A DNA stretch of 64,000 nt from Candidatus Parcubacteria bacterium (GTDB lineage: Bacteria; Patescibacteriota; Patescibacteriia; Patescibacteriales; UBA12075): assembly GCA_963814275.1 (NCBI GenBank), contig CAWFCE010000002.1:811263-875262 (forward strand). Direction: 5' to 3'. A model generated the notes under the pieces. It was not told the DNA's origin. It did not search any database and worked only from the letters and a program-made list of their open reading frames with translations. Every line of letters starts with the position of its first letter. The first letter of the stretch is position 1. A program made the position numbers and the translations under genes. This document shows positions 15,985 to 47,307 of this stretch, piece by piece.

Positions 15985-17451
15985 ATGAACGGTCGTATGG
16001 CAACAAAAACTGGAAAAAAGATCGTTAAAATTCACGATATTACCGATTTCGAAAAATTCATTCATAACAGGGAGCTAGCGCTCAAGGCTGAAAGCGATAT
16101 TGAAATCTGTGCGAATCCGGAAATATTTTCAAGCATATATAATATTCTGAATATGTTATGGGCAAAAAATGTCCGAAAAGTCGATTTGGTTTTTACCGAA
16201 GAACTAATCAGGAAATCCGGTATAAAAAAGTTGGCTGCCAGATTTTCCGGCCTACGCTATTACTTTCTGGATAAATTGATATTGAGGGCGGCGAATATAC
16301 CATATTGCCTGATCAAACAGCCGGAGGGAGTAATATTTTGGCAGGGGAAAAAGGGAGAATTCGTTAAATTTAATCTTTGCCGGATATGCAAGTACCGCCA
16401 GTTCTGCCGCGGTGTGCACAGATCGATTTCCGATATCCATATCAGGGAAATTTTGCGAACTGTTCCTGATCGGCCCCGGGAAGTGATGATTGAGATTGAA
16501 GAAAAATGTAATTTGAATTGCGAATTCTGTTTTAACAAAAATAGTTTTGCCAAACGCGGCAGAAATGTCGAAAACAAACTTAGTACATCAATTGTTAAAA
16601 ATATAATAGACAGCATAGCGGACGCCGATATCGGAACCGTCAGGTTTACGGGAGGAGAGCCGTTACTCAGGAGCGATATTTGGGAGCTGGCGGAATTTGG
16701 CAAGAAAAGAAACCTGGAAGTCCGGCTGAATACGAACGGCATACTGATAAAAGATTACGCAACAGCCGAAAAAATCGCCGTTAATTTCGATAACATTTTA
16801 ATACCGATTCAGTATTCGGATATATCGATGGGGAATAATGCCGCGAAAATTAAACTTAAGGGGATTAAACTGCTCAAAAAAGCGGGTGCCAAGACAATCC
16901 GTATCGGCACGGTCGCCACTAATGAAGTTATAGATAATTTAACCCAAGTCCACGCCTTCGTCAAAAAACTACCAATCGATAAATGGGAATTATACCGGAC
17001 GATCGCTGCCCCCGGCCGCCATACCGGATATACCAGATCCCGGGTGGCAACGCTGGTTGAAGGGCTGATAAAGATCAAAAACGAAACCGGAGTTGTCCAT
17101 TATATAATAAATGCCATCCCTTTTTGTAGTTATAATCCATTAAAAATGCGGCAGGTCGCCGCCGGCGCCAATGCCGTAGACGGGCACGAAAGGTTCGTTA
17201 TCGATCCGCGCGGATTTGCGAAACCGATATATTATATGGACAGGAATATCGGCGAACCGGGTGATATTATGGGCGCCTGGAACCACCAATTCATGAAAAA
17301 AATGAGAACCCTGAAGTTTGTTCCGAAAGAATGCAAGGATTGCGTTTTTATTGAAAAATGCCGTGGTGGTTGTCGGTTTTCCGCCTATTCCGAAAACGGA
17401 AATTTTTCCGCGCCGGATCCTCTGATGGATGCCCGTAATATTATCAAGTGA
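15985..17451 (+). CDS. Radical SAM/SPASM protein with a ~160-aa N-terminal extension
   Basis: The triad is EEKCNLNCEFCFN and the SAM strand is RFTGGEPLLR. The SPASM end is PFCSYNP...CKDCVFIEKCRGGCRFSAY. An extra CRICKYRQFC motif sits before the core. Confidence 0.8.
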   Translation: MNGRMATKTGKKIVKIHDITDFEKFIHNRELALKAESDIEICANPEIFSSIYNILNMLWAKNVRKVDLVFTEELIRKSGIKKLAARFSGLRYYFLDKLILRAANIPYCLIKQPEGVIFWQGKKGEFVKFNLCRICKYRQFCRGVHRSISDIHIREILRTVPDRPREVMIEIEEKCNLNCEFCFNKNSFAKRGRNVENKLSTSIVKNIIDSIADADIGTVRFTGGEPLLRSDIWELAEFGKKRNLEVRLNTNGILIKDYATAEKIAVNFDNILIPIQYSDISMGNNAAKIKLKGIKLLKKAGAKTIRIGTVATNEVIDNLTQVHAFVKKLPIDKWELYRTIAAPGRHTGYTRSRVATLVEGLIKIKNETGVVHYIINAIPFCSYNPLKMRQVAAGANAVDGHERFVIDPRGFAKPIYYMDRNIGEPGDIMGAWNHQFMKKMRTLKFVPKECKDCVFIEKCRGGCRFSAYSENGNFSAPDPLMDARNIIK

Positions 17452-17461
17452 TTATAATCGT

Positions 17462-18061
17462 ATGGATATTATCAGGATCGAGGGTGAAAAAAGCTTTTAT
17501 TATGCGGCCAGACGAGCCGTAATAATCTTGAAAAAAGGAGGTATAGTCGTCCATCCAACTGACGCTTGCTACGGAATAGCCGCTGACATCACGAATGAAA
17601 AGGCGGTAAAAAAGGTATTTGCGCTCAAAAGGAGGGAACTAGACCATCCGGTAAATATTATCGTTAAAGACAGGGAGGATTTTTCGAAATTTGGCCGGTG
17701 GTCCCCGTTGATCGATGATTTGACGAAAAAGCAACGGAAAAGAATGTACAGTTTTGTCGTCAAAAAAACCGATCACTGCCCGGGTTTTTTAAATCCGAAT
17801 TTCGAAACTGTCGGTATTCAGATTCCCAAAAATCCGTTTTCACTCGAGATTTTGGGGTTAATAAAAGTGCCGTTGATAGCGACCAGTGCGAATATTTCCG
17901 GGAAAAATAACGTATATAAAGTCGAATCGATCTTGAATCAGATTAAAGATGCGGAAATCAACCCGGATTTGATTATTGACGGAGGAGCATTGCCTTACCG
18001 CAAGGTGTCACGGGTGATCGAAATCATTGGCCATGATAAATATCGAATTGTAAGAAATTAG
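17462..18061 (+). CDS. tsaC: YrdC/Sua5-family L-threonylcarbamoyladenylate synthase-like protein
   Basis: ATG at 17462. The core is VVHPTDACYGIAADITNEKAVKKVFALKRRELDHPVNIIV...IATSANISG, the YrdC-domain signature. Confidence 0.7.
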   Translation: MDIIRIEGEKSFYYAARRAVIILKKGGIVVHPTDACYGIAADITNEKAVKKVFALKRRELDHPVNIIVKDREDFSKFGRWSPLIDDLTKKQRKRMYSFVVKKTDHCPGFLNPNFETVGIQIPKNPFSLEILGLIKVPLIATSANISGKNNVYKVESILNQIKDAEINPDLIIDGGALPYRKVSRVIEIIGHDKYRIVRN

Positions 18062-26773: not shown

Positions 26774-26774
26774 C

Positions 26775-27989: not shown

Positions 27990-28018
27990 CAGTTTAATCT
28001 GCGTAAATCACTTATCCG

Positions 28019-29374
28019 ATGAATAATACATTCTGCCCCATTCCATGGTTAATGCTCGCCACCCGCACGAACGGCGACGTGCGGGTGTGTTGTCAAGCTA
28101 ATCAAGGTAAAACCCATGGTTTATTGACTGATAATCATGGCCGGCCTTACAATTTGAAAAGAAATACGATACTGGACAGCCGAAATGCCCCGCTCGCTTG
28201 CGAGATGAGGAAGAAAATGATCGAAGGGGAACGTCATCCCGAATGTTTACGCTGCTGGCGGGAAGAGGATAGCGGTATGTTATCCCGTCGGGAGCAGGAA
28301 ATTGAATTATGGCAGGAAGTGTTCGGCTTAAATGAAGCCAGGAAAATCACCGGCAAAAGAGGGGAAATTCCCGCGGATTTCGAGCCGATTTACTACGATT
28401 TAAGATTGGGCAACCTTTGCAACTTAAAATGCCGGATGTGTTTTCCGACCGATAGTTCCGGCTGGTATTCGGAATATAATGATATCTATGAAGATGATTA
28501 TTTTTACGATACCCACGGCAAAGTGCAGCTGGTTAAAAGGAGCAACGGCTGGCAAGCCAAAAATAACGATTATGATTGGTGTCTCAGGGAAAATTTTTGG
28601 CAGGATCTGGAATCGAAAATCGGAAATATCAGACATATATACATCGTCGGGGGCGAGCCGCTGCTGATCAGGAGGCATTATGAATTTTTGGAAAAATGCA
28701 TCGCCCTCGGTTACGCGAAAAATATCAAATTGGAATACAATACTAATATAACGACTATATCGGATGAAATACTCAAGTTATGGGCCAGTTTCAAAGAAGT
28801 GCGCATCGGAGCGAGCGTTGACGGATACGGCAAGATAGATGAATATATCCGTTACCCGAGTAAATGGGAGACGATAGAGAGGAATTTACAAAAAATAGAC
28901 AAGATGGAGGGCAACGTTCTGGCTTGGATCGCCTGCACGGTAATGATTTACAACGTATATTATATCCCGGATTTCATCAAATGGAAGCTGGAATCGAACT
29001 TCAAACGCATTAATCCGATTACCCGGCCTAAGCCGTTTCTGACCCTTCATCCATTGCATACCCCCCCGTATTTCAATATCAAAGCTTTACCGTTGAATGC
29101 AAAAAAAGCGGTCGCCAATAAGTATCGGGATTTTTATGACTGGTATGATGAGTATATCAGCCACCAGACGGTGGAAAACAAGGAATTGCTGAGGAAAAAA
29201 TTACGCCACACCCTGGACGGATATATTAATTATATGAATAAGGCGGATTGGACCCGCGAACTAAACAGATTCTGGGAGGTTACCCGCCGCCTTGACGAAT
29301 CGAGAAATCAAAATATCGAAGAATTTTTGCCGGAATTGTACCGGCTGATCGGAAAAAGTGAAAAAAATGGATAA
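28019..29374 (+). CDS. Radical SAM protein with an N-terminal 4-Cys module, paralogue 4 of 7 (closest to paralogue 1)
   Basis: FCPIPWLMLATRTNGDVRVCC...PECLRCW, then the triad LGNLCNLKCRMCFPTDSSGW, then YIVGGEPLL, YIRYPSKWETIE and IPDFIKWKL. Confidence 0.85.
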   Translation: MNNTFCPIPWLMLATRTNGDVRVCCQANQGKTHGLLTDNHGRPYNLKRNTILDSRNAPLACEMRKKMIEGERHPECLRCWREEDSGMLSRREQEIELWQEVFGLNEARKITGKRGEIPADFEPIYYDLRLGNLCNLKCRMCFPTDSSGWYSEYNDIYEDDYFYDTHGKVQLVKRSNGWQAKNNDYDWCLRENFWQDLESKIGNIRHIYIVGGEPLLIRRHYEFLEKCIALGYAKNIKLEYNTNITTISDEILKLWASFKEVRIGASVDGYGKIDEYIRYPSKWETIERNLQKIDKMEGNVLAWIACTVMIYNVYYIPDFIKWKLESNFKRINPITRPKPFLTLHPLHTPPYFNIKALPLNAKKAVANKYRDFYDWYDEYISHQTVENKELLRKKLRHTLDGYINYMNKADWTRELNRFWEVTRRLDESRNQNIEEFLPELYRLIGKSEKNG

Positions 29375-30542
29375 AAAACCCCACAATTTATTGAGATCTG
29401 ACATATTTTGCATCTTACCCTGGGTCTCATTGCATGTCGGCACTACGGGAAATTTGTGCTTATGCTGCCGATCGAATTATAAAGAATATTTTCTGGCTGA
29501 CATCAATGATTTAGAGACTTTAGGGGTATATGATTTCGTGAAACTCAGATCATTACGTCGCAAGATAATCGATGGCAAAAAAATTCCCCAATGCCAAAAA
29601 TGTTATAAAACCGAAAAGAACAATGGCGAAAGTCTGCGACTGTCTTTTTTGAAAAGGGAAAATTTGAATTATTTCCGGCAGGCTCTTGGCTATAAAAACA
29701 TTGAAGAAATGCTCAATGATATTTACGATAAAAATGGCGCCTGGGATAAACCGCCGGTATACCTGGACCTGAAGCCCAGTAATAAGTGTAATTTACGCTG
29801 CCGGATGTGCGGTCCATCGAGTAGTGACCAGGCGTCGAGAAACAATAGTAAACCGACAAAATTAAATTGGATGGATGAAAATGGCAATTTTGAAAAAATA
29901 GAAAAAATATTACCGCAAGTGGTACAACTTAAAATTGGGGGAGGCGAACCGACGATCGCGGAAAACGCCATAAAATTACTGGATGAATGTATCGGAAAAA
30001 ACTATGCGCTAAATATAAAATTATCGATTACCACCAATGGCTTGATGATCGATAAACTTTTGCCGTATGCGAAATTCTTCAAGAGTTTTAACGTTACTTT
30101 CAGTATTGAGGCGATCGGACATGTCTATGAATATATCCGCATACCGGCCAAATGGGAGTCAGTTGAAGCAAATTTTTTGAAGATGTTGAACGCTAAGAAT
30201 ATCGGGATTTCGGTAAATACCATAATTATGTTGGATAACATATTTTATTTATACCATGATTTTTTACCTTGGATAGATAAGATGTCGAAGATTAGAAAAT
30301 TTACCGTAAACCCCTTTATTATAAGTAAACCAGGATACCATAGCCCCTATGTACTGCCACTCGGCACGAGAAAATTTATCGTTAAGAAGATAAAGCGGCG
30401 ATTGAACGAATTGGCGCATATTGATGCACCGACGAAAGATAATTTTTTATGCCTTTGCCGGACTTTGGAGGAACCCGGATTTGACGAGGAAAAAATGGCC
30501 TGGGGATTCAAAGAGTTTATAAGGGATCATAGGAATCTATAA
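29358..30542 (+). CDS. Radical SAM protein with an N-terminal 4-Cys module, paralogue 5 of 7
   Basis: FCILPWVSLHVGTTGNLCLCC...PQCQKCY, then the triad PSNKCNLRCRMCGPSSS, then KIGGGEPTI and YIRIPAKWE. An alternative start lies at 29367. Confidence 0.85.
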   Translation: MKKMDKKPHNLLRSDIFCILPWVSLHVGTTGNLCLCCRSNYKEYFLADINDLETLGVYDFVKLRSLRRKIIDGKKIPQCQKCYKTEKNNGESLRLSFLKRENLNYFRQALGYKNIEEMLNDIYDKNGAWDKPPVYLDLKPSNKCNLRCRMCGPSSSDQASRNNSKPTKLNWMDENGNFEKIEKILPQVVQLKIGGGEPTIAENAIKLLDECIGKNYALNIKLSITTNGLMIDKLLPYAKFFKSFNVTFSIEAIGHVYEYIRIPAKWESVEANFLKMLNAKNIGISVNTIIMLDNIFYLYHDFLPWIDKMSKIRKFTVNPFIISKPGYHSPYVLPLGTRKFIVKKIKRRLNELAHIDAPTKDNFLCLCRTLEEPGFDEEKMAWGFKEFIRDHRNL

Positions 30543-30615
30543 ATACCATGCCCAATGATTATTCCATCGCATAATTGTTAGAAAAAGCGATTCCATTAAT
30601 TGCTGCCGCGTATTC

Positions 30616-30741
30616 ATGCGCATAATTCGTAAATTCAGAAAAGAATTCAAAAAAGGCGTTAATACGGCTTGTAACGAAATGTGTCCGGGAAAGATTAAGA
30701 AAATTATGTATGCCGAAGAACTTAATCTAAAAAAATTTTAA
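30616..30741 (+). CDS. Possible 41-aa small ORF in the only large gap of the rSAM array
   Basis: ATG at 30616 to TAA at 30739-30741 gives MRIIRKFRKEFKKGVNTACNEMCPGKIKKIMYAEELNLKKF (2 Cys). There is no clear SD, it is below the ORF-track cutoff, and it could be a chance ORF. Confidence 0.2.
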   Translation: MRIIRKFRKEFKKGVNTACNEMCPGKIKKIMYAEELNLKKF

Positions 30742-30750
30742 ACCAAAATA

Positions 30751-31905
30751 ATGGGAGAAGATAAGAACGTAAAAAATTACGGAGATATACCCTTCACCAA
30801 AATTGTCCGCGTCGGCCAAAGATCGCTGCTGTATAATGATTTGTTTTGCGTCAGTTGGTTATTGGGGCGATTTTGCAATTATCGGTGCAGTTATTGCTGG
30901 CGCCATGGCCGCTCCAGTAAGAGAGACCATCGTCCGACCCGACTGATAATCTCGACTTTAGATGAGATCAAACGCCAAGCACGGGGGCGGGGTTTCAATT
31001 CATTCCATTTTTCTTTTTCCGGGGGCGAACCGACGCTTCACCCCGGATATTTGGAAATTGTCGGACACTTCTGCCGTGATGCAGACAATACCAATTATCA
31101 GAGTCTGCACATGACCACAAATTTAAGCGCCAAAATCGATTTACTCCGTCGCTATGTCGATATTTCCCGGAATATCCATCGTGTTTCGGTTACTGCCAGC
31201 TGGCATCCGGAATTTGCCAACCGCGAACCGTTTCTCGAAAAATTGCTTTTTTTGATGGATAATGACATCGAGATCACGGTGAATGCGGTAATGATACCGG
31301 AACGGTTCGAATCGCTTTGGTCTGACGCTTTGTTTTTTCATAAGCATGGCGTGAATGTAACGCTTAAACCGCAAAGCGATCCTACCGCCAGTTATGTCGT
31401 TGATGGCTACAACGATGATATGCTTGTACGGATGCGCCAGGGTTTGCCGCAAAAGGAATTCACTAAAGCGAAACTCAAAATAAACGGACAGAAATCGAAA
31501 CGTCCGAAGCGCAAATACCCTTATCACGACGATCTAGATGCCGAAAAAGACAGCTGGGAAATCCCTTCCGTTATGCAAATAGAGTTTACCGACGATGAAG
31601 GGAAAAAATGGTATATGGACCAGGCAGAAAGGTTTAATGCTTTCGGATTCAACCAGTTCAAAGGATGGGAATGTTCATCCGGTTACCGCAGCATCATTAT
31701 CCGCGAACCGGATGGTTCGATCAAGCGCAGTTATAGCTGCCACGATGAACCGCTCGGATACATCGATCGGGGCTTCGAATTATTTTCCCGTCCCGAACCT
31801 TGCCAGACATCAACTTGTGTCAGCTCGGCGGATTCGAAAATACCGAAACGCATGCCGGGGACGAAATTGCCGTTGTTTCCCCGTGATCAGACCTATACCA
31901 AATAA
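30751..31905 (+). CDS. Radical SAM protein of a distinct family, interrupting the 7-paralogue array
   Basis: The triad is LGRFCNYRCSYCWRHG and the strand is FSFSGGEPTLHPGY. The C-terminus has SCHDEP...PCQTSTCVS. The FCxxPW N-terminal module is absent. Confidence 0.8.
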   Translation: MGEDKNVKNYGDIPFTKIVRVGQRSLLYNDLFCVSWLLGRFCNYRCSYCWRHGRSSKRDHRPTRLIISTLDEIKRQARGRGFNSFHFSFSGGEPTLHPGYLEIVGHFCRDADNTNYQSLHMTTNLSAKIDLLRRYVDISRNIHRVSVTASWHPEFANREPFLEKLLFLMDNDIEITVNAVMIPERFESLWSDALFFHKHGVNVTLKPQSDPTASYVVDGYNDDMLVRMRQGLPQKEFTKAKLKINGQKSKRPKRKYPYHDDLDAEKDSWEIPSVMQIEFTDDEGKKWYMDQAERFNAFGFNQFKGWECSSGYRSIIIREPDGSIKRSYSCHDEPLGYIDRGFELFSRPEPCQTSTCVSSADSKIPKRMPGTKLPLFPRDQTYTK

Positions 31906-31918
31906 ATAAAGCGTATCA

Positions 31919-33229
31919 ATGATAAAGAAATTTACGAAAAAATCGAAAACATTCTGCATAATGCCGTTTATTCATCTTAATCATAAGCAGAATAACAAAA
32001 TCGGCACCTGTTGGCGGGCATTACCGGTCGGTGATTTGGAAAAGGAATCGCTGGAAAGGATTTGGAATAATGAAAATATCAAAAGAGTGCGTCACCAGCT
32101 TTTGAATAACGAGCGGCCGGCTGAATGCCAGGCTTGCTGGCTGCTTGAAGATAACGGATCTTCGAGCTATCGCGATCAGACAACCTTAACGGGCCAGGAC
32201 AAAGAGGAGAAAATGGCTGCGGACCTGATGCCGGAATTGGATATGGGGAACATGTCCCTTCCTTACAGAGTGCCATATGCGGAAATTCGTTTTTCCAATT
32301 TATGCAATTTGCGCTGCCGGATGTGCAGCCCGCGGTTTAGCGTGCAATGGGACAAGGAGTGGAAAAATAATCATAAATTGCGAACCTTTATCGAGAAAAA
32401 TGATCCGAGATCTTTGAACGGGTATATTTCCGTTTCCCGGGTAGACGCTAATGACAATACAATAAGGGCGAAGTTGTTGGATTTTCTGGAGAAATCCGCC
32501 CCGCATCTCCGCTATGTCATGTTTGGCGGTGGCGAACCGTTGCTGCAGCGCGATCATTACCGCGCCCTCGAGATACTGAAGCCTTATGCCAAAAATATTA
32601 CATTGGAATACACATCAAACCTTACGCGACTCGATCGGCATAAAAACCAGATATTCAAATATTGGCCGTTGTTCAAACATATCGATTTGAAAGTATCTCT
32701 GGATGCTGACCGAATAATTTATACCTATATCAGGCAGAATAGCCGGGTGGCCTGGCCGGAAAAGAATATTAAAACCATACAAGAAATTATCGATCCCGAA
32801 AAAATCAGGATATGCGCCACTTGTACGACCAGCGTTTATAATATCGAGAGGCTGCCTGAGGCGATGAATTGGTTCACGGAACTCGGCTGCTGGGCGCATG
32901 CGAGCATAGTATCTTATCCGAAATTCTTATCGGTGCATATTTTGCCGAAAGAGTTGAAAGCCAAGATAAATAAAAAAATAGATCTTTTCTTGTCTAACCT
33001 AGATTCCGACCTGAACTGGCTGGTCCATCCGCTATGGAAGGATAAGGGTAATCGGGAAAAGCAAAAAGAGTTGATCAAGCAGTATGTTATGAGTTGCCGA
33101 AATTATATGAACGGCAGCCACGACCAGAAAAGATGGAAAGTATTCCTAAACTTTGACGATATCCTCAGCGAAAAACAGAATTCTATCCTAGATATTTATC
33201 CGCGCTGGGAAAAATTTCTGTCTAAATAA
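31919..33229 (+). CDS. Radical SAM protein with an N-terminal 4-Cys module, paralogue 6 of 7
   Basis: FCIMPFIHLNHKQNNKIGTCW...AECQACW, then the triad FSNLCNLRCRMCSPRFSVQW, then MFGGGEPLL. Confidence 0.85.
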   Translation: MIKKFTKKSKTFCIMPFIHLNHKQNNKIGTCWRALPVGDLEKESLERIWNNENIKRVRHQLLNNERPAECQACWLLEDNGSSSYRDQTTLTGQDKEEKMAADLMPELDMGNMSLPYRVPYAEIRFSNLCNLRCRMCSPRFSVQWDKEWKNNHKLRTFIEKNDPRSLNGYISVSRVDANDNTIRAKLLDFLEKSAPHLRYVMFGGGEPLLQRDHYRALEILKPYAKNITLEYTSNLTRLDRHKNQIFKYWPLFKHIDLKVSLDADRIIYTYIRQNSRVAWPEKNIKTIQEIIDPEKIRICATCTTSVYNIERLPEAMNWFTELGCWAHASIVSYPKFLSVHILPKELKAKINKKIDLFLSNLDSDLNWLVHPLWKDKGNREKQKELIKQYVMSCRNYMNGSHDQKRWKVFLNFDDILSEKQNSILDIYPRWEKFLSK

Positions 33230-33252
33230 ATGAAAATACCTTTATTGAATAT

Positions 33253-34473
33253 ATGAAAAATTTTTGCGTTCAGCCTTTTATCGGATTGGCTATATTGCCA
33301 ACCGGTTCAATTGTACCTTGCGGTGACTCGATAGCGAAATATCAGCTGGGTAATATATATTTCGGTGATACTGTCACATCTGTTTGGCGGGGCAAGGAAT
33401 TGGATGATCTAAGGGAAAAAATCAAGTCCGGTTCGAATATATCGCTATGCCAAAGATGTTATGATGTCGAGAGGAGCGGTCTTGATAGTAAGCGAGTAAT
33501 TAAAAATCGCAAATGGCAAAAAAAATTGAGAATAAAGGGCCAAGATACATATAGAGAATGTTTATATGCAAATAACCGAATTAAATTTTTAGACATATCA
33601 TTCGGCAATAAGTGTAACCAGAAATGCGTGATGTGCTCCCCGGTATATTCATCACAATGGGTTAAACACAAAGACCTTTTTGATTTAGTCGGTATACGAT
33701 ATAACTCCAATGAGACAAATGAGCGGTCGATACCGTACGGAATTGTTGATGATATTTTGGAAAATTGTCGTAACCTTATAAAATTGAACATTAAGGGCGG
33801 CGAACCGCTTGTTGACAGAAAATGCATATATTTTTTAGACAGGCTATCACATATAAATCCCAATATTGATAATGTCAGTATTGTCACAAATGGTACCATA
33901 TTATCGCGGGAAATACTTAATATACTTAATAAATTCAAGAATATCTCCGTCGCCTTCAGCATAGACGGTACAAGTAAGATTAATGAATGGATCCGGGGAT
34001 CAAGTTCGATAATTATTTTGAATAACCTTAGGAAGCTCGCTATGCTGGATAGTTTAGTCGAAATTAGGATACACCACACTATTAGCGCGTATAATTTTTG
34101 GGATACGATTCCCTTTATCGAATTAACTCAAAAAATAAAAAAAGATATATTTGGCAAAAAGGGAAAAGCAATGAGTGTAAATTTGAAGCAGTATGTCGAA
34201 CAGCCCTATATTTCGGTAAAAAACATTCCCATTGATTTTAGAAAAAAAGCTATCGCGGAAATTGAAAAAAAATTACAAATCACAGATAAATCATTCTATG
34301 GCAAGGAGGAATTGCTTCGTTATGTATGTTTGCCCGAAAGCGCCGGAAAGGATCAAAGTGATTTTTTAAAATGGACAAACACATTTAATAAAATTAGAAA
34401 TCTTGATATTTATAAAATAGTACCAGAGCTAAATGAGGTTAAAAAATATATCGAATTAAATAAATATAGATGA
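33253..34473 (+). CDS. Radical SAM protein with an N-terminal 4-Cys module, paralogue 7 of 7
   Basis: FCVQPFIGLAILPTGSIVPC...SLCQRCY, then the triad FGNKCNQKCVMCSPVYSSQW, then NIKGGEPLV. Confidence 0.85.
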   Translation: MKNFCVQPFIGLAILPTGSIVPCGDSIAKYQLGNIYFGDTVTSVWRGKELDDLREKIKSGSNISLCQRCYDVERSGLDSKRVIKNRKWQKKLRIKGQDTYRECLYANNRIKFLDISFGNKCNQKCVMCSPVYSSQWVKHKDLFDLVGIRYNSNETNERSIPYGIVDDILENCRNLIKLNIKGGEPLVDRKCIYFLDRLSHINPNIDNVSIVTNGTILSREILNILNKFKNISVAFSIDGTSKINEWIRGSSSIIILNNLRKLAMLDSLVEIRIHHTISAYNFWDTIPFIELTQKIKKDIFGKKGKAMSVNLKQYVEQPYISVKNIPIDFRKKAIAEIEKKLQITDKSFYGKEELLRYVCLPESAGKDQSDFLKWTNTFNKIRNLDIYKIVPELNEVKKYIELNKYR

Positions 34474-35753
34474 AAACAACCGTCAAAAAAGGAAAATCGG
34501 TTAAGGTGTTATTTTATACCGCGAACGGTGTCGGCCTGGGGCATCTTCGCCGTACCAGCCTGATTGCAAAGGCAATTCAGGAAATCGAACCAAGGGCGCA
34601 GATCCGGTTTGTTACGATGAGTCAAAATCCCGGATTTCTCAGTGAACTCAAAATACCTTTTAATTTAATCCAACCAATTACGGATGAGATGTTAGATATT
34701 AATAATTATGATGCTTTTGTCCGAGCCAAAAAAAATAACGAATTGGCCCTCAGCCGTGTTTTACGCGATTTCCAACCGCAGGTAATAGTAGTCGATATCC
34801 ATTGTTTTTCCAATTACTCATTTCCCCAGGCTGCTTTTACCGGAAAAAATAAGGCAATCAGAAAAATACTGGTTTTCCGCCAAGGGGACAGGCAGAGCTT
34901 CGAAAATATTGTGAAGAACGAAGGAGGGGCGCTTACGGACAAAAGGAATGTTTTGTTGCCCGATATTCCTGATCGGTTTTTAACTCGGGAAGAATTCCAG
35001 GGCCTGGCCAAGCTAAAACTTTTTAAAATGATTTTATTGCCCCACAACCGGCTTGAAATTGTCGGAAAAATTTCCGCGCAAGTTATGAATATAATCGATT
35101 CTGATAAACGTTTTAAAGTAATCGGGCCAATCGTCGGAAAGCTGAACCGTGGAGTATTGGGATCATGCCGAAATAAATACCGGATCATGCCAGAAGAATT
35201 TTTAATGACGGTTATTCTGGGGGGAGGCGGAGAGCTCCTTAAGGGAAAATGCGAATCACCGATAGGCCTGGTTACTGCACTGTTAGACGAGTTGCCAGCG
35301 TTGAAAAAGGTTATCCCGAAATTACGGATGGTCTTGGTTACCGGGCCATTATTCAAATATAAGAATGCGGTCGTAAAGATGGCGATGAAATACGGTTGCT
35401 TTATCCAGGTCGTTGGTTATGAAGAAAATTTATTAGAGTTAATGCATTTATCACAGCTTGTTATTTCTCCGGTCGGGTATAATGCGGGCAATGAAATATT
35501 AAAATCCGGTACGCCGGTTTTGTTAGCGCCACTAGTGCGCGGCGACCAAAATGAACAGGAAGAACGGGCAAAACACCTCGAATCCCTCGGGATCGGATTG
35601 GTGCTATCCCGCCCGTGGAAAAAGAATATATCAGGATCGATAAGAAAGTGTTTGAAGTATTACGATGTGATGAAAAATAATTTTAGCAAACTGCCGCGTT
35701 ATAAGGCTGGCAACAGAAAAGCAGCAGCTCTAATCGTTAATGCAATTAAATAA
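34470..35753 (+). CDS. GT-B glycosyltransferase (MurG/GT28-like C-terminal domain)
   Basis: The N-terminus is VLFYTANGVGLGHLRRTSLIAKAI (G-x-G-H-x-x-R). The C-terminus is ISPVGYNAGNEILKSGTPVLLAPLVRGDQNEQEERAKHLESLGIG, which resembles the MurG-type donor-binding half. Confidence 0.6.
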   Translation: MKTTVKKGKSVKVLFYTANGVGLGHLRRTSLIAKAIQEIEPRAQIRFVTMSQNPGFLSELKIPFNLIQPITDEMLDINNYDAFVRAKKNNELALSRVLRDFQPQVIVVDIHCFSNYSFPQAAFTGKNKAIRKILVFRQGDRQSFENIVKNEGGALTDKRNVLLPDIPDRFLTREEFQGLAKLKLFKMILLPHNRLEIVGKISAQVMNIIDSDKRFKVIGPIVGKLNRGVLGSCRNKYRIMPEEFLMTVILGGGGELLKGKCESPIGLVTALLDELPALKKVIPKLRMVLVTGPLFKYKNAVVKMAMKYGCFIQVVGYEENLLELMHLSQLVISPVGYNAGNEILKSGTPVLLAPLVRGDQNEQEERAKHLESLGIGLVLSRPWKKNISGSIRKCLKYYDVMKNNFSKLPRYKAGNRKAAALIVNAIK

Positions 35754-37356
35754 CATGATATATTTTTTAAGTACACAAAATAAATGTAACAACAATTGTC
35801 CCTATTGCGATTTGCTGAATAAAAAGACCGAAGAAGAAAAAACATTATGCGATCTGGAGGAGGAAATACGTTTGGCAAAAGACAGGGGATACGATACCAT
35901 TAAATTATCCTGTAATACCGATATTCGAAAAGATTTCATTGACTTGCTAAAAATTTTGCATAATCATCGATTGCAAGTAATTCTGGAAACTAATGGCCGG
36001 ATATTCTTTTATCGTGTTCTGATCAGAAAAATTTCCAAATACATTAAAAGCTACGAAATCTTGTTCGATTATGCTAACAATAGCGGTAATCCATATCCGG
36101 CAAGACGACAAGGACAAAAAATTGCCGGGATAAAAAACATAGTAGACCACGTTGACACCGATACCTTGACAGCCAAGATAATCCTTTGGGGTGATAATGC
36201 GAATAATTTTAGGGTTTTATTGAGCCAGGTAAAAGGTTTGGGATTTAAAAAGCTTAAGGTCGTTCTCCCCCTCAAGGGCAATGCCAATGATCCGGTGTAT
36301 TCCCTGGTAAGATATGTTTCGATGGTAAAAGAAATAAAAGATTGCATACGGCAACTCGGTTTGGAATTGATAATCGACTGGACGGTGGAATACAATCCTT
36401 ATATAACCGCGGATAGGGATTTTTTCGATATCAACAAAGCGGAACTGCGGTTTGAAAAAACAATTTACAAAAAAAAGCCGGCAATTAGCGTGGTAATTCC
36501 CACATATAATAAATCCGGTTATCTGGGAATCGTATTAAAGAGTTTTTCAGCGCAAAAAATCGACAGGTCAAAATATGAAATAATCGTGGTCGATGACGGT
36601 AGCACGGACGGAACAGGGGAAATGATTAAAAAAATGAACTTTCGTTGCAACATTAAATATATTTATTGGCCCCGTAAAAAACTTCCCGCAAATGATTTTT
36701 TCCGTAATTGGGCGGATTTTCACAACCGAGCAGGTTTGGCGCGTAATATCGGGATAAAAGAATCAAGGGGGGAGATAATACTGTTTAACGATAATGACGT
36801 GGTAGTGGAAACCGACTGCCTTAGCAGGCATCTGCGACATCACAGCAAGAACCGTTCGCTTGTAGTGAAGGGTTTGCGCTGGTTCGTGAACGATGAATTC
36901 TTTAACGGTCGGGGACTGCATGATATGACCATGAGAAAAATAAAAAATAATGCCAGTCCTGAAAAAACGGATATCGGTAAGCGCTTGCATTGCCGTGTGT
37001 ATGACCTGAAAAGAGAAGGCTGGCAACGCGTGATAACTTATAATTTGAGCATTAGGAAAAAGATCGTTGAAAAGGCAGGTTTATTCCACATGGACTCGCC
37101 TTTTTGGGGCTATGAAGATATTGACCTTGGTTACCGTCTGCACAATCTAAATTTAAAATTTATCTGGGATGGTGATATTAATGTTTATCATTTGCCCCAT
37201 CCGGTACAAACGAAAAATGGTCTTAACTCTTTGTCAGTCCTGTGGTTGAACCTGAATATATTATTTCGAAAATATCTGGATGAAGAAATGTACGAATTAT
37301 ATCGCGATGTGATATTGTATAAGCTAGAAAATATAATCAATAGAAAATTATGTTGA
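35740..37356 (+). CDS. Fusion protein: N-terminal radical-SAM-like domain plus C-terminal GT2 (GT-A) glycosyltransferase
   Basis: The N-terminus has STQNKCNNNCPYCDL (Cx3Cx2C) but no clear GGEP strand. From about aa 247 it reads ISVVIPTYNKSGYL...EIIVVDDGSTDGT...ILFNDNDVV, the GT2 DxD-type core. An alternative start at 35755 lies just after the upstream stop. Confidence 0.75.
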   Translation: MQLNNMIYFLSTQNKCNNNCPYCDLLNKKTEEEKTLCDLEEEIRLAKDRGYDTIKLSCNTDIRKDFIDLLKILHNHRLQVILETNGRIFFYRVLIRKISKYIKSYEILFDYANNSGNPYPARRQGQKIAGIKNIVDHVDTDTLTAKIILWGDNANNFRVLLSQVKGLGFKKLKVVLPLKGNANDPVYSLVRYVSMVKEIKDCIRQLGLELIIDWTVEYNPYITADRDFFDINKAELRFEKTIYKKKPAISVVIPTYNKSGYLGIVLKSFSAQKIDRSKYEIIVVDDGSTDGTGEMIKKMNFRCNIKYIYWPRKKLPANDFFRNWADFHNRAGLARNIGIKESRGEIILFNDNDVVVETDCLSRHLRHHSKNRSLVVKGLRWFVNDEFFNGRGLHDMTMRKIKNNASPEKTDIGKRLHCRVYDLKREGWQRVITYNLSIRKKIVEKAGLFHMDSPFWGYEDIDLGYRLHNLNLKFIWDGDINVYHLPHPVQTKNGLNSLSVLWLNLNILFRKYLDEEMYELYRDVILYKLENIINRKLC

Positions 37357-38612: not shown

Positions 38613-39749
38613 ATGGATTTCGATCTAGTAGACATTATTTTATTACCCGCCCTGTTGATTGTCGGCGCAATCACATCCTGGGAAGATTACAGGATCGGGA
38701 AGATCAGGAATAAATGGCTGGTTATGGGCTTCATATATGGAATCGCAGTCTATATATTTTTTTTATTGCCGAATGTCGGGATAAACAGTTATATTTTCAA
38801 TAATTATCATTTGCCGGTATTAATTTTTTGGCAAATAGTCTTGAACACTTTGATTGCCGTTATTGCGAGCTTTTTGTTATGGCGTTTCGGTTATATTTCC
38901 GCCGGTGACGCTAAGCTCTTCATTATTTATTGCTGGCTGTTGCCGTTTAAATATTATAGCCGCACCTACTTACCTGCTTTTCCGTCCTTTGCCTTGCTGA
39001 TCAATATGTATTTACCTCTTTTATTATTGTTGTTTATTGAGTCGATTTGGTATCTTTTTAAAAGGCCTGCCGGTAAGCGGAAAAAGAAACAATTCGGCCA
39101 AGCGAGTACGCACAATTTGTCTAGTATGGGGATAGAAAGTTTCATATGGCAAATCATAAATTTTATTTCCTTGATTATCATCTTTAATTTCATTAGAAAT
39201 ATATTTAGTCCATGGCTGCCCGAAATTTTCAGGGGTAATATTTTATTGTTTTTGGTTTTTTATATCGGAAGACGATATATTTACAATATATTCAAAAATA
39301 AAAAATACTTATTGGCCTTGGTGACATTAGCCTTATTGGCAGAACTGTCCTACTTGTTAATTTACGGGCCAGTATTGACTATCGAAAAATTTTGGATTGT
39401 AGCGCAAACCTCGATCGTTTTTTTAATCGCGATTATATTATTGCAAAATCTGTTCGAAAAGCATCTGCTTAAGACCGCTTTAAGAAAAATTAAAATAAAA
39501 AATTTAAAAGTCGGGATGACCCCGCTCCTGAAAAAGAGACCAACTCCGATGATCGGCCTTATAGGCGGTAGCGGAATTACCAAAGAACAAATTGAGATTT
39601 TGAAAAAATGGGGAAAGGATAATGATTTTAAAGAGATGGAAATATATAGAAAAGCGCCGTTTGCCCACTGGATGCTTTTGGGAGTAATCATTACTATAGT
39701 CATGCATGGTTCGCTTTTACACTTATTTTTAGATAAAATTTCAAATTAA
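38613..39749 (+). CDS. A24-family (prepilin peptidase-like) aspartic membrane protease with an extended C-terminal region
   Basis: Polytopic membrane protein. TSWEDYRIGKIRNKW is the first Asp motif (D-x-x-x-x-x-I-[PR]-N). ISAGDAKLFIIY is the second (G-x-G-D-x-K-L). Confidence 0.6.
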   Translation: MDFDLVDIILLPALLIVGAITSWEDYRIGKIRNKWLVMGFIYGIAVYIFFLLPNVGINSYIFNNYHLPVLIFWQIVLNTLIAVIASFLLWRFGYISAGDAKLFIIYCWLLPFKYYSRTYLPAFPSFALLINMYLPLLLLLFIESIWYLFKRPAGKRKKKQFGQASTHNLSSMGIESFIWQIINFISLIIIFNFIRNIFSPWLPEIFRGNILLFLVFYIGRRYIYNIFKNKKYLLALVTLALLAELSYLLIYGPVLTIEKFWIVAQTSIVFLIAIILLQNLFEKHLLKTALRKIKIKNLKVGMTPLLKKRPTPMIGLIGGSGITKEQIEILKKWGKDNDFKEMEIYRKAPFAHWMLLGVIITIVMHGSLLHLFLDKISN

Positions 39750-39882: not shown

Positions 39883-41199
39883 ATGCCCAAGATTAAAAAC
39901 ATTTTAGCCCGCGAGATCCTTGATTCACGGGGTAATCCGACTGTGGAAACGAATATTATCCTGGATAACGGTGTTTCGGCCAAAGCCAGCGTGCCGAGCG
40001 GAGCCTCGACCGGCATTCACGAGGCCTGGGAATTGCGGGACGAAGATTATCAGCGCTATAGCGGCAAAGGCGTGCTCAAAGCGGTTGAAAACGTAAATAC
40101 AAAGATCTTCAAAGCGCTTAAAGGAAAAGACATCGATAAGCAGGAGCAGATCGATGAGATGATGATCGAGCTTGATGGCACCAAAAATAAGAAGAATCTG
40201 GGCGCGAACGCCATATTATCTGTATCCCTGGCCTCGGCTCGGACCGCGGCTATGGCAAATAATACGGAGCTTTACGCCTATATTGCAGAAACCTTCAAAT
40301 TTGACACCAAAAAATACCGTCTGCCCACGCCGTCATTCAATATTTTTAACGGCGGCAAACATGCCGACACCAATCTGGATTTCCAGGAATTCATGATTAT
40401 GCCGCTGCGCGGTACGCGGACGGGCACGGATAAGAAACGGATAAACACTGATAACGAACTACCGTTCGCCAGGATGGTGAGGATGGGAGCGGAGATCTTT
40501 CATGAGTTGGGCAAGGTATTGAAGGAAGGGGGGTATGATACCGACGTCGGCAATGAGGGCGGCTATGCCCCGGATATCCATTCGAGCATCCAGGCGCTGG
40601 AATTCATTTCCGCCGCGGCGACCCGGACCGGCTATAAACCGGGCGAGGACGTCGGCTTCGGTATCGATGTCGGTTCGAGCGGACTTTATAATCCGGAAAC
40701 CAAAAAATACGTTTTCAAGCTCGACAATGCCCAGTTTACGGCCGTTACTTTGACCCATTTGTATTATGAATGGTTCCGGAAATTTCCGATCATCTCGATC
40801 GAGGATGGCTTGGGGGAAGATGACTGGGCCGGCTGGCGCGAACTGAATCATGAATTGGGCCGGGAAATGCTTCTGATCGGCGACGATCTTTTCGTGACCA
40901 ACCTCGACCGCCTGCGGCGGGGGATCAAGGAGCGGGCGGCCAACGCCATTCTGATCAAGCCGAACCAGGTCGGGACCTTGACCGAAACGGTGGCAACGAT
41001 CAAACTGGCGCAGAAGCATGGCCTCAAAACCATGGCCAGCCACCGCAGCGGCGAGACCACCGACGACTTTATCGCCGATCTGGCGGTCGGTACCGGTTGT
41101 GATTACATCAAATCCGGCTCATTGTCGCGCGGCGAGAGATTGGCGAAGTATAATAGGCTAATGGAGATAGAGATGGCACTTGAACACGGGAACACTTGA
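39883..41199 (+). CDS. eno: Enolase (phosphopyruvate hydratase)
   Basis: ILDSRGNPTVE, SGASTGIHEA, IEDGLGEDDW, LIKPNQVGTLTE and SHRSGETTD are all canonical enolase motifs. A ~15-aa basic insertion follows EFMIMP. Confidence 0.97.
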   Translation: MPKIKNILAREILDSRGNPTVETNIILDNGVSAKASVPSGASTGIHEAWELRDEDYQRYSGKGVLKAVENVNTKIFKALKGKDIDKQEQIDEMMIELDGTKNKKNLGANAILSVSLASARTAAMANNTELYAYIAETFKFDTKKYRLPTPSFNIFNGGKHADTNLDFQEFMIMPLRGTRTGTDKKRINTDNELPFARMVRMGAEIFHELGKVLKEGGYDTDVGNEGGYAPDIHSSIQALEFISAAATRTGYKPGEDVGFGIDVGSSGLYNPETKKYVFKLDNAQFTAVTLTHLYYEWFRKFPIISIEDGLGEDDWAGWRELNHELGREMLLIGDDLFVTNLDRLRRGIKERAANAILIKPNQVGTLTETVATIKLAQKHGLKTMASHRSGETTDDFIADLAVGTGCDYIKSGSLSRGERLAKYNRLMEIEMALEHGNT

Positions 41200-41648
41200 G
41201 CACCGGATCAATATAATAAGAGTACCTAATTCGTAAATGCAATTTTTTATGGGTGAGTTTCGGGATAAATTAATCAAGAAAATAGATGAATACGTCCATT
41301 ATATCTATAGATTTACCAGAGATTTTCCCAAAGAAGAATTGTACGGGGCGGTATCACAAATCCGCCGCGCGTCTATGTCTATTATATTGAATTATATCGA
41401 AGGCTATGCCAGGAGAAGACCGGCTGTACAGTTGAATTTTTTTGAAACTTCATACGGATCATTTAAAGAATCTAAATATCTTTTACATTTTTCTTTGGTA
41501 GAAAAATATATTAATGAAATTGATTATATAAAAGGTCTAAATTTGGCCGAAGAAATTGGCGCCATGCTATGGACAGAGCTATCTTCTTTGGATAATAAGT
41601 TAAAGCCAGGGATCAAATAGTGTTTCAGTGTTCCGGTGCCCAAGTGTT
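41191..41648. repeat. 17-bp inverted repeat (16/17) bracketing the four-helix-bundle gene
   Basis: The left arm AACACTTGAGCACCGGA (41191-41207) overlaps the eno stop codon. The right arm TCCGGTGCCCAAGTGTT (41632-41648) lies just upstream of gpmI. The arms are rich in GAACAC/GTGTT(C) units. Confidence 0.8.
41237..41620 (+). CDS. Four-helix-bundle protein (23S rRNA intervening-sequence protein family, TIGR02436-like)
   Basis: YRFTRDFPKEELYGAVSQIRRASMSIILNYIEGYARR...SYGSFKESKYLLHFS matches the family pattern FPkeE-x-y-x-l-x-sQlrRAa-x-Si-x-x-NIaEG. An alternative start lies at 41249. Confidence 0.85.
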   Translation: MQFFMGEFRDKLIKKIDEYVHYIYRFTRDFPKEELYGAVSQIRRASMSIILNYIEGYARRRPAVQLNFFETSYGSFKESKYLLHFSLVEKYINEIDYIKGLNLAEEIGAMLWTELSSLDNKLKPGIK

Positions 41649-41662
41649 TAAATGAAAGTATT

Positions 41663-43252
41663 ATGCCGAAAAAAACAAGCAAACCACGTACCAATCTCCC
41701 CCTTGTCCTCATAATCCTCGACGGCTGGGGGATCGATAAGCCGAACAAAGGGAATGCCATAGCGCTGGCCAGGACGCCGACTATGGACGGCTTGATGCGG
41801 AAATATCCGAGTGCCAAACTGCGGGCCCACAGCCGGTTCGTCGGCTTGCCGGCCGGCCAGGTCGGCAATAGCGAAGCCGGGCACATGAACATCGGCGCCG
41901 GCCGCCTGGTCGAACAGGATTCCGTCCGTATCAGCAAAAGCATCCAGGACAAGACTTTCAATAAGAATTCGGCCTTTTTGGGCGCTATCCGCCACGTCAA
42001 AAAAATGAATTCGCGCATGCATCTCATCGGCATGCTGTCCAATGGGCAAAGTCCGCACAGCGACCCGGGGCATTTGCTGGCCCTGATCAAATTAATGAAG
42101 CTGCGCGGCATAGACGACGTTTTTTTGCATCTTTTCACGGATGGCCGCGACTCGCCGAAGTACGCGGCATTGCAGCTGGTTGACGATCTCGAGAGCCGCG
42201 TTTCGGGGGGGATTTATATCGCCTCGATCATGGGCCGGTTCTACGCGATGGACCGGAAAAAGAAATGGGAACGGACCGAAGCGGCATACAAAACGCTGGT
42301 GGCCGGGCAGGGATTGAAGGCAAAAAGCGCGCAAGCGGCCATTACCGAATCGTATAACCGCGGCGAAAGCGACGAATTCATCCAGCCAAACGTGATCGAG
42401 CAGATCAAAGGCTTGAATAGCCGGATCAAAGACGGCGATAGCGTGATATTCTTCAACTTACGATCGGACCGCGGCCGTCAATTGAGTAAGGCGTTTGTCC
42501 AGAAAGATTTCAACCGGATGAATCCGGGTTCGTTCAAACGGCCGAACAAACTGCACCATTTGTATTTTACCGCGATGACCGACTTCGGCCCTGATCTGGA
42601 CGACATTCTGACCGCTTATCCCAGTTTTGACCTGGGCGATACCCTGCCGATGCGGCTGAAAGACTATCGGCAGTTATATCTGGCGGAAACCGAAAAATAC
42701 GCCCATGTGACATATTTTTTCAATGGCGGTTTTTCCGGCACGGTCGCCGGCGAAGAACAAATGATGGTACCGTCGCCGGACGTGAAGTCTTACGACCAGA
42801 CACCGGCCATGAGCTCGGCGGGACTGGCCAAGGTGTTATTGGGCAATATCAAACCGAACGGCAAGACAAAACGCTGGCTTTATGATTTCATTACCGTGAA
42901 TTTCGCCGCTCCCGATATGGTTGGCCATACCGGCAATCTGTCCGCCGCGATCAAGACCTGCGAAGCGGTGGACAAATACGTCAGCGAGATCGTCAAAGCA
43001 TATTTGAAAGTCGGCGGAACCGTTTTGATCACCGCTGATCACGGTAATATCGAAAAAATGATCAATCTGGAAACCGATGAAATTTTTACCGAGCACACCA
43101 CCAATCAGGTACCGTTTATCGTTGTTAATAACAAATTACGCAATCGCTTGAAATTACGCTCCAATGGCATCTTGGGCGATATCGCGCCAACGATACTGAA
43201 GCTATTGGGTGAAAAACGCCCGTCCGCAATGCGGCGGAAAGCGCTTTTTTAG
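41663..43252 (+). CDS. gpmI: 2,3-bisphosphoglycerate-independent phosphoglycerate mutase
   Basis: LVLIILDGWG, the nucleophile motif GQVGNSEAGHMNIGAGR, NFAAPDMVGHTG, ITADHGN and TEHT. The length is full, about 530 aa. The ATG at 41663 is preferred over the track start at 41636. Confidence 0.93.
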   Translation: MPKKTSKPRTNLPLVLIILDGWGIDKPNKGNAIALARTPTMDGLMRKYPSAKLRAHSRFVGLPAGQVGNSEAGHMNIGAGRLVEQDSVRISKSIQDKTFNKNSAFLGAIRHVKKMNSRMHLIGMLSNGQSPHSDPGHLLALIKLMKLRGIDDVFLHLFTDGRDSPKYAALQLVDDLESRVSGGIYIASIMGRFYAMDRKKKWERTEAAYKTLVAGQGLKAKSAQAAITESYNRGESDEFIQPNVIEQIKGLNSRIKDGDSVIFFNLRSDRGRQLSKAFVQKDFNRMNPGSFKRPNKLHHLYFTAMTDFGPDLDDILTAYPSFDLGDTLPMRLKDYRQLYLAETEKYAHVTYFFNGGFSGTVAGEEQMMVPSPDVKSYDQTPAMSSAGLAKVLLGNIKPNGKTKRWLYDFITVNFAAPDMVGHTGNLSAAIKTCEAVDKYVSEIVKAYLKVGGTVLITADHGNIEKMINLETDEIFTEHTTNQVPFIVVNNKLRNRLKLRSNGILGDIAPTILKLLGEKRPSAMRRKALF

Positions 43253-43262
43253 CGCCCGAACT

Positions 43263-43366: not shown

Positions 43367-43376
43367 TGCTAACATT

Positions 43377-47215: not shown

Positions 47216-47287
47216 TTAAATATCTTGATGTTTTTATTTTAATTGTACTAAGGTATTTATGTTTAGTCGTAATATTGAACTTTTTAC

Positions 47288-47305: not shown

Positions 47306-47307
47306 TT

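Follow-up and report, generated by a model that had tools for sequence, protein, structure and literature searches.

Within a 64,000-nucleotide (nt) stretch of the Candidatus Parcubacteria contig CAWFCE010000002.1, hereafter the window, we analyzed a gene in which a small radical S-adenosylmethionine (SAM) domain (rSAM) is joined to a family 2 glycosyltransferase (GT2) domain of the GT-A fold, together with the genes that surround it (Table 1). A preliminary description of this DNA, made from its letters alone, had assigned the fusion to a 538-amino-acid (aa) open reading frame (ORF), and we found this frame as described. Its true start is probably the internal ATG at 35755, which encodes Met6 of the longest ORF, so that the first five codons would be left untranslated. 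This start is favored by the position of the TAA of the upstream gene, at 35751–35753 and 1 nt earlier, by the N-terminus read from Met6 (MIYFLKT...), which matches the start of all the orthologues, and by the database entry P0001, a copy of the fusion protein that is 533 aa long. Residue numbers given below are those of the 538-aa ORF.

Whichever start is used, the fusion gene is tightly packed behind a gene for a GT28-like glycosyltransferase, and a TsaD-like gene overlaps its stop by 7 nt. This arrangement suggests translational coupling of the three genes. It also means that the fusion does not close the cluster, as had been proposed, since the TsaD-like gene follows it, with additional rSAM genes beyond this one in other genomes. 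No membrane segments were predicted in the fusion protein, and its full-length AlphaFold model (pLDDT 88.8, pTM 0.89) shows six beta/alpha units in the rSAM part.

Table 1. Positions in the window of the fusion gene, its domains and motifs, and the two genes that flank it
Feature	Position	Strand	Remarks
GT28-like (GT-B) glycosyltransferase gene, 427 aa	34470..35753	+	Pfam Glyco_tran_28_C; stop 1 nt before probable fusion start
rSAM-GT2 fusion gene	35755..37356	+	533 aa from probable start; longest ORF 35740..37356, 538 aa
Small rSAM domain	35755..36447	+	ORF residues 6-236; six beta/alpha units; no auxiliary-cluster cysteines
CNNNCPYC, the CxxxCxxC [4Fe-4S]-binding motif	35785..35808	+	Residues 16-23 (C16, C20, C23)
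S-C-N-T-D motif	35908..35922	+	Invariant Cys58; columns of canonical S-G-G-E-P
I-L-E-T-N-G (beta3)	35980..35997	+	T/S-N-G-R kept in nearly all members, distant fusions included
Junction segment	36388..36483	+	EYNPY...FFD...AELRFEK
GT-A/GT2 domain	36484..37353	+	VVDDGS, DxD, WGYEDID, two C-terminal helices
TsaD/Kae1-like gene, 417 aa	37350..38603	+	Conserved downstream neighbor

The two halves of the protein and their junction

The identity of the N-terminal half is supported by the Pfam Radical_SAM model (PF04055), which matches residues 11–114 with 32.1 bits against a curated cut-off of 29.5; relatives such as P0004, P0127 and P0132 score higher (39–58 bits). The CNNNCPYC motif was located exactly where the preliminary description had put it. 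Its cysteines and the aromatic residue before the third of them are kept in all the full-length relatives, and the asparagines are kept with few substitutions. The lack of a GGEP strand was likewise borne out: at the end of beta2, where the GGE strand that binds the amino group of SAM is expected, residues 56–61 read L-S-C-N-T-D. The GGE motif is variable across the rSAM superfamily and its absence does not bar membership. In a QueE profile alignment the S-C-N-T-D region falls on the G-G-N-P of QueE, and outlying relatives carry SGGEP (P0128 and P0134) or SGIEP (P0133) in the identical columns. The subfamily thus derives from canonical rSAM enzymes, the GGE strand having been swapped for a Cys-containing motif under selection. 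In the T/S-N-G-R motif of beta3, the G is replaced by A or T in a few members and the TNG is missing in one.

The fold of this half had been set beforehand as a test of its assignment. An AlphaFold2 model of residues 1–240 alone (pLDDT 81, pTM 0.82) again has six beta/alpha units, and when it was compared with the PDB by Foldseek each of the top 24 matches was an rSAM enzyme, the highest TMq being 0.67. The list was led by BlsE (7vob; E 1.2e-6, TMq 0.65) and viperin-like enzymes (TMq 0.63–0.64); TigE, GDGT-MAS, SkfB (TMq 0.67), PqqE, HydE, anSME, SuiB and QueE were also matched, and DesII (8hzv) and PFL-AE came lower. From a sequence profile run against the PDB sequences we obtained rSAM proteins nearly throughout, the best seven included, with QueE first at 7e-4. 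The models and the structural matches agree, within the limits of prediction, and the N-terminal half is confidently predicted to fold as a partial (beta/alpha)6 TIM-barrel rSAM core.

We observed that C58, R63, L82-E83-T84, E106, G130, N133, K146, P177, E217 and N219 are conserved in every full-length relative. Over 18–23 orthologues of 26–54% identity, C16, C20, C23, C58, R63, T84, G130, N133 and N219 are invariant and N85 and P220 nearly so, and most of these residues are also kept in distant multidomain relatives. This invariance and its retention over long distances argue for a working active site. As only four cysteines of the rSAM domain are conserved, there is no auxiliary cluster, and neither Pfam nor NCBIfam gave a SPASM (PF13186) match in the fusion. 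The twitch-domain model NF033640 and the prokaryotic viperin model NF038283 are not among the matches listed for the fusion (the best 25 of 39 in NCBIfam). No curated NCBIfam model covers the domain as a subfamily, the best matches being of the MoaA type near 1e-6. When 1.84 billion representatives were scanned exhaustively by HMMER with the rSAM domain, only 243 matches at E≤1e-3 were obtained, 41 of them at E≤1e-10. Aligned with these distant relatives, the domain shows a fixed signature of the subfamily, which can be written as CNNNCx(Y/F)C, (S/P)-C-N-(S/T)-D-x-R-K-D-F, T/S-N-G-R, G-I-K-N and N-P-(Y/F).

Two other readings of the domain were considered and rejected. Membership in a known defense system was tried with the PADLOC pVip model, which gave just 21 bits (E 4e-5), a weak and generic viperin-like similarity. 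A local duplicate of another rSAM gene of the window was also sought; the closest, the ORF at 15985, reaches only 28 bits.

The C-terminal half is an intact GT2 domain of the GT-A fold. From residue 250 onwards Pfam PF00535 (Glycos_transf_2) scores 94.1 bits against a cut-off of 23.3. The core strings listed in the preliminary description, ISVVIPTYNKSG, VVDDGS (36586–36603) and the DND of FNDNDVV (36790–36798), are all present and their coordinates were verified; WGYEDID lies at 37105–37125. D286, D351-x-D353, W456-G-x-E459-D460 and H487 are invariant, and D285 is nearly so. The Foldseek neighbors of this half are K4CP, AvpGT, WrtF, RmlT, TarP/TarS and SpsA, with a probability of 1.00 for K4CP, TarP/TarS, RmlT and SpsA, and its best solved relative by sequence is the N-acetylgalactosamine (GalNAc)-transferase domain of K4CP (2.8e-15). 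The curated GT2 equivalog models all stay far below their cut-offs, among them EpsD (NF041875) with 109.9 against 370 bits, MftF (TIGR03965) with 48.2 against 280, HpsN with 50.9 against 425 and PglI with 34.6 against 500.

Between the two halves, the orthologue alignment is conserved and has no gaps; E217 and N219 do not vary there, and P220 hardly does. The junction is a structured connector and not an accidental join, since it is retained even in relatives that lack the rSAM core.

Recurrence of the fusion and loss of the rSAM core

Searching 5.8 billion proteins, we obtained 22 further relatives of full length, with 38–54% identity and 93–99% query coverage. They derive from many independent metagenomes, and in most of them PF04055 and PF00535 are both present. 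An independent assembly of run ERR11571143 contains the identical protein as well, again with the 427-aa and 417-aa genes on either side. From these data the rSAM-GT2 architecture lies far beyond chance, and the proposal of a genuine, conserved fusion is upheld, with both domains over their Pfam cut-offs.

The only split copy that we observed is P0267, of locus L089 (GCA_900162855.1, FUWD013024668.1), in which the rSAM part forms a separate 145-aa ORF. There the fusion is present as pieces of 145, 110 and 143 aa, the TsaD gene is shortened to 235 aa and one rSAM piece measures 81 aa; the fact that most of the genes lie in pieces indicates a frameshift-rich assembly, and the gene broken in L089 is intact in another assembly as P0015. 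The explanation that two genes were joined by a lost stop or frameshift during assembly or annotation, for which P0267 would speak, can be taken as already refuted by the conserved junction across both halves in the 22 relatives from many independent samples, by the identical 533-aa protein of the second assembly and by the wide fragmentation of L089. Fragments such as P0267 sit in public collections and could mislead counts of architectures.

Not all of the searches recovered the family. When the N-terminal alignment was run as a profile against the 5.8-billion-protein collection, it retrieved six short proteins only and missed the known orthologues; it led to L089. In a scan of GTDB genomes the patterns all stemmed from the GT2 half, and what came up were generic GT2 genes (query residues ~245–490) and no fusions. 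One orthologue carries the database name “glycosyltransferase [Patescibacteria group bacterium]”, and a GT2-only relative comes from Gastranaerophilaceae. We did not find a family model or a description of an rSAM-glycosyltransferase fusion in NCBIfam or in the open-access full-text literature, in agreement with the preliminary description, which knew of no characterized rSAM-GT2 fusion. Both of the parent superfamilies are well known; it is for their combination and for the CNNNC/SCNTD subfamily that we found no curated model and no description in that literature.

Pfam scans and custom hidden Markov models (HMMs) were used to assign the architectures of the distant relatives. GT28-rSAM-GT2 chains, some of them with a further rSAM/SPASM part, are represented by P0121, P0125, P0129, P0136, P0143, P0145, P0038 and P0039, and also by P0004. 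The remaining orders are GT2-GT28-rSAM-GT4-rSAM/SPASM (P0130, 1920 aa), GT28-rSAM (P0127), GT28-GT2-rSAM (P0040), GT2-rSAM (P0042) and rSAM-GT2-rSAM (P0041 and P0123). A GT2 and/or GT28 domain shares the chain in 16 of the 28 library representatives that bear both signature motifs. In locus L003, the 791-aa protein directly upstream of the orthologous fusion (7629–10004) consists of an N-twitch-type rSAM part (~1–400) and a GT28-like part (406–789). The module thus contains two independent fusions of an rSAM with a glycosyltransferase. As the joining of rSAM and transferase domains recurs in many orders, it is strong evidence for a shared pathway, and the proteins probably also form a physical complex.

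Other relatives have only part of the rSAM domain, or none. Five proteins of ~395 aa (P0025, P0026, P0027, P0030 and P0037) start at rSAM HMM position ~140, without the Cys motif, and keep the C-terminal ~100 rSAM residues in front of the GT2. In P0034 (328 aa, 47% identical to the GT2 half), which directly follows its GT28 gene, only the LEYNPYLP...FFD...AELKIDF connector is kept; P0032, a GT28-GT2 fusion without an rSAM core, has the same connector, and in P0028, likewise, the NPY...FFD connector is all that is left of the rSAM part. A split-gene origin for the ~395-aa proteins was considered and rejected, as the GT28 gene abuts directly and leaves no space for a separate N-terminal half; in L090 it ends one base before the start of P0026 (6001–7179). 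In relatives with half or no rSAM core the GT28/GT2/TsaD-like neighborhood is unchanged. We read the short forms as probable secondary losses that may constitute a natural decay series. The retention of the GT2 and of its neighbors in these forms suggests that the radical step is dispensable for the transferase and has an optional tailoring role, and the persistence of the C-terminal part of the rSAM domain suggests that this part has a structural role for the GT2.

The conserved module and the wider locus

We compared the gene order of eight related loci, the central proteins of which are just 42–48% identical to the query. The local order is rSAM genes, GT28-like, (r)SAM-GT2, TsaD-like, usually Sua5/YrdC-like, and then more rSAM genes. 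In most of these loci the GT28-like gene lies directly upstream of the fusion or GT2 gene; it is present and not adjacent in L088 and L091. The TsaD-like gene follows directly in seven of the eight, the exception being L091, where an rSAM gene comes first. The GT28-like protein of the window aligns end-to-end with the first 386 residues of P0004 (33% identity, E 5e-72), a 918-aa GT28-rSAM-GT2 protein found in two samples, the remainder of which is 48% identical to the query fusion. On this synteny, the fusion is placed in the middle of a conserved module of GT28-like, small rSAM, GT2 and TsaD-like components.

The TsaD-like gene is divergent, reaching 128.7 bits against a family cut-off of 296 and being matched in two stretches. 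In most related loci it is accompanied by a Sua5/YrdC-like gene; in the window, the Sua5-like gene (17429–18061) and an rSAM neighbor lie upstream of the fusion, at 15985..18061. Two TsaD+Sua5 pairs are present within 10 kb in L087 and two TsaD-like genes in L091, and because of these duplicates at least some of the TsaD-like copies are probably cluster-specific and not housekeeping enzymes of t6A synthesis. Kae1-like and YrdC-like domains are the two domains of the TobZ/NodU-type sugar carbamoyltransferases. A TobZ-type reading of the TsaD-like neighbor found no support and is no more than a lead: by sequence, the solved proteins closest to it are genuine TsaD, and none of the matches at E≤0.001 is TobZ.

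Between the TsaD-like gene and an enolase gene lies a 378-aa polytopic membrane protein (38613–39749) with ~8 or more hydrophobic segments. Its sole match is a sub-threshold one to prepilin peptidase (A24), and it is missing at this position in the related loci that were examined.

The gene run from ~3.9 to 37.4 kb of the window has ~15 rSAM domains, a remarkable number for a contig of 1.27 Mb, of which the locus takes up ~31 kb (~2.4%). The size of the contig would fit the small genome of a Patescibacteria-like organism. From ~6.6 to 37.4 kb we counted 14 ORFs that have both the canonical CxxxCxxC and a Pfam rSAM match. Two atypical rSAM-like ORFs lack the canonical motif: one at 3885–5324, just upstream of this span, scores slightly under the Pfam rSAM cut-off (28.7 against 29.5 bits), and one at 10075–11655 has weak matches of the PhpK/BchE/B12-rSAM methyltransferase type. 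Seven ORFs, starting at 24127, 25493, 26775, 28019, 29358, 31919 and 33253 (window 24127–34473), match NF033640, ‘twitch domain-containing radical SAM protein’, with 244–418 bits, and in three of these Pfam also places a SPASM match at the N-terminus. As the mutual identity of the seven is only 23–37%, this array is old and not the product of a recent duplication.

Interleaved with the rSAM genes are those for an NTP-transferase, a TagF-like protein, an aldo-keto reductase with an Fe-S domain, a class I/II aminotransferase, a GT4 and an AsnB-like amidotransferase. The aldo-keto reductase (12793–13917) lies between two rSAM/SPASM genes and has a 4Fe-4S dicluster ferredoxin-like region fused to its C-terminus. 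It may serve the pathway as redox partner or as sugar reductase; an aldo-keto reductase is also present in L091. The related loci further contain sulfotransferases, a polysaccharide deacetylase, a PMT_2 GT-C enzyme and methyltransferases, as well as an NAD-binding Rossmann protein (GxxGxxG) that we read from its sequence as a short-chain dehydrogenase/reductase.

The largest gap within the rSAM run (22029–22326, 298 nt) holds a 98-aa ORF (22050–22346) that is unlike a precursor of a peptide that is made on the ribosome and then modified post-translationally (RiPP), and the gap at 30543–30750 holds a 41-aa ORF. No convincing RiPP precursor was seen among the small ORFs of the intergenic gaps (22050–22346, 30616–30741 and 3685–3888). 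Rfam gave no rRNA, tRNA or riboswitch family anywhere in the window.

Possible functions of the fusion protein

We cautiously favor the reading that the protein is a bifunctional enzyme, in which a GT2 is combined with an active tailoring rSAM domain that acts on a sugar handled by the flanking transferases. The C-terminal half would be a catalytically intact, metal-dependent, inverting GT-A/GT2, most like the N-acetylhexosamine-transferring domain of chondroitin polymerase, and the N-terminal half a minimal single-cluster rSAM domain of an uncurated subfamily; together with the abutting GT28-like gene the fusion would form a two-transferase module, which in other genomes is one GT28-rSAM-GT2 polypeptide. 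The [4Fe-4S] cluster would reductively cleave SAM, the 5′-deoxyadenosyl radical would take a hydrogen atom from a sugar carbon, either in the nucleotide-sugar donor or in the residue just attached by the GT28-like enzyme, and the GT2 site of the same protein would then use or extend the modified sugar. The radical step would be optional tailoring that is not needed for glycosyl transfer. The data show what the two domains are, their predicted folds, the conservation of their motifs, the recurrence of the fusion and the synteny; we infer the activity of the rSAM domain, the sugar nature of its substrate and this order of steps. The specific chemistry is speculative, and could be an epimerization or reductive deoxygenation with Cys58 as the hydrogen-atom donor, or a dehydration of the BlsE/viperin type; as there is no auxiliary cluster, dehydration, epimerization or reductive quenching would be likelier than a two-electron oxidation.

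The nature of the neighborhood, both in the window (NTP-transferase, TagF-like, GT4) and in the related loci, is of the glycan type and speaks for this bifunctional reading, and the order GT28-rSAM-GT2 fits an in-line modification between two transfers. The preliminary description had called the covalent link direct evidence that the radical chemistry of the locus acts on a sugar. The fusion is indeed good guilt-by-association evidence for this, without being direct evidence, and it covers only its own small rSAM domain and not the other ~14 rSAM genes. That interpretation is therefore partly supported, being over-stated on this point and on the boundary of the cluster.

Among the known systems, BlsE (the cytosylglucuronate-modifying rSAM enzyme of blasticidin S), viperin, the viperin-like enzymes and DesII act on sugars that are linked to a nucleoside or a nucleotide. 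They have in common with the rSAM half that the partial TIM barrel is compact and carries a single CxxxCxxC cluster. They offer a plausible analogy for radical chemistry at a sugar carbon, and a nucleotide-sugar substrate would fit these structural neighbors. The fusion differs from them in having only 9–17% identity, SCNTD in place of GGE, no viperin-type C-terminal extension and a fused glycosyltransferase, and it reaches no curated viperin or BlsE model. The rSAM sugar epimerases, dehydrogenases and dehydratases of the aminoglycoside pathways (NeoN, HygY, BtrN and AprD4) work by radical abstraction of hydrogen at a sugar carbon, and in NeoN and HygY the hydrogen-atom donor is a Cys of the active site. 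By analogy with this Cys of NeoN and HygY, Cys58, which would lie at the SAM site, is a candidate donor. The rSAM half has no twitch or auxiliary cluster and no detectable specific sequence relationship to these four enzymes, whereas the seven neighboring NF033640 proteins share the twitch feature with BtrN and HygY.

Among solved proteins, K4CP of Escherichia coli K4 is the closest to the GT2 half in sequence as well as in fold, and the GT28-(rSAM)-GT2 polypeptides resemble it in carrying two transferases per chain. K4CP, however, consists of two GT-A domains without a radical enzyme, whereas here the partner is a GT-B, GT28-like domain with the rSAM between; the resemblance would not imply polymerase activity of the GT28-rSAM-GT2 proteins. 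GT2 and rSAM enzymes are known to act in sequence as separate proteins, as in HpnI/HpnK/HpnJ of the hopanoid pathway, where the rSAM remodels the sugar attached by the GT2, and in MftC/MftF of mycofactocin, where MftC acts on a peptide. Unlike the fusion, the Hpn and Mft enzymes are encoded by separate genes, and the weak MftF match of the GT2 half (7e-13; 48 against 280 bits) does not make it a member of that family.

Several observations weigh against the bifunctional reading. The PF04055 score of the query is barely over the threshold and does not assure activity, and the GGE motif is absent. There is no characterized homologue, and the nearest curated families fall far under their cut-offs. 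No priming phosphoglycosyl transferase, flippase or polymerase was recognized in the window. Many of the neighboring rSAM genes are of the SPASM/twitch types, which more often act on peptides. Finally, some lineages have lost the rSAM core, which could just as well be a sign of a domain that is turning vestigial.

A bolder form of the same reading, which we consider unlikely, is that of a ‘radical glycan synthase’, in which the rSAM domain, lying between two glycosyltransferase sites, would tailor the sugar in line, for example by a Cys58-based epimerization or deoxygenation of the just-added residue before the next transfer. If true, it would place radical chemistry inside the glycan-assembly cycle and not in a separate tailoring of precursors.

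We give a low probability to the idea that the N-terminal domain is dead, or is purely structural or redox-related, an Fe-S (or cluster-free) scaffold by which the GT28-like and GT2 enzymes would be positioned or the redox state sensed, with no radical chemistry. The lost GGE strand and the marginal Pfam score are in line with it, as are the C-terminal rSAM half and NPY linker, which outlast the cluster-binding half in the relatives and so point to a structural role for the GT2, and the pTM of 0.89 of the full-length model, which suggests rigid packing of the two halves. Set against these, the three cluster cysteines, the aromatic residue, Cys58, TNG(R) and GxxN are kept over long distances and in many fusion contexts; the SGGEP found in the same columns of canonical relatives speaks for replacement under selection and not decay; and lineages that do not need the rSAM domain delete it instead of keeping an inactive copy.

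Similarly improbable, in our view, is the modification of a peptide or protein (a RiPP or a glycoprotein), in which the rSAM domain and the SPASM/twitch rSAM enzymes would modify a peptide that the GT2 glycosylates, as is known of the GT2 S/O-glycosyltransferases of glycocins, the radical chemistry then being on the acceptor. SPASM/twitch rSAM enzymes, which are typical peptide maturases, do give secondary NCBIfam matches of the neighbors; the AsnB-like gene has a weak match of the lasso-cyclase type; a priming transferase and a flippase were not recognized in the window; and the polytopic membrane protein with faint similarity to prepilin peptidase lies two genes downstream of the fusion. However, the intergenic gaps of the locus hold no convincing precursor-peptide ORF, and neither Pfam nor NCBIfam gave an RRE-type domain for any gene. 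The accessory genes are instead of the sugar type (NTP-transferase, TagF-like, GT4, GT28, sulfotransferase, deacetylase and PMT_2), and the enzymes that match the small rSAM domain best in structure have nucleoside or nucleotide sugars as their substrates. Twitch-type rSAM enzymes, moreover, also include BtrN, HygY and AprD4, which act on sugars.

To our knowledge, carbohydrate-acting rSAM enzymes are few and come almost only from antibiotic pathways, and we know of none that is a domain of a glycosyltransferase. The recurrent fusion offers a testable handle on the role of at least one of the ~15 radical enzymes of the locus, and its 1:1 stoichiometry hints at substrate channeling between radical and transfer chemistry. 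The conserved Cys-containing motif in place of the GGE strand is of mechanistic interest for the rSAM superfamily, and the natural variants, whose rSAM core is complete, halved or absent while the gene context stays the same, constitute a ready-made comparative experiment.

Elsewhere in the window, the G+C content rises from ~0.34–0.44 in the cluster to 0.49–0.60 past ~40 kb (window 40000–52000), and a 976-aa ORF at 44285–47215 carries six MopE-type putative metal-binding repeats.

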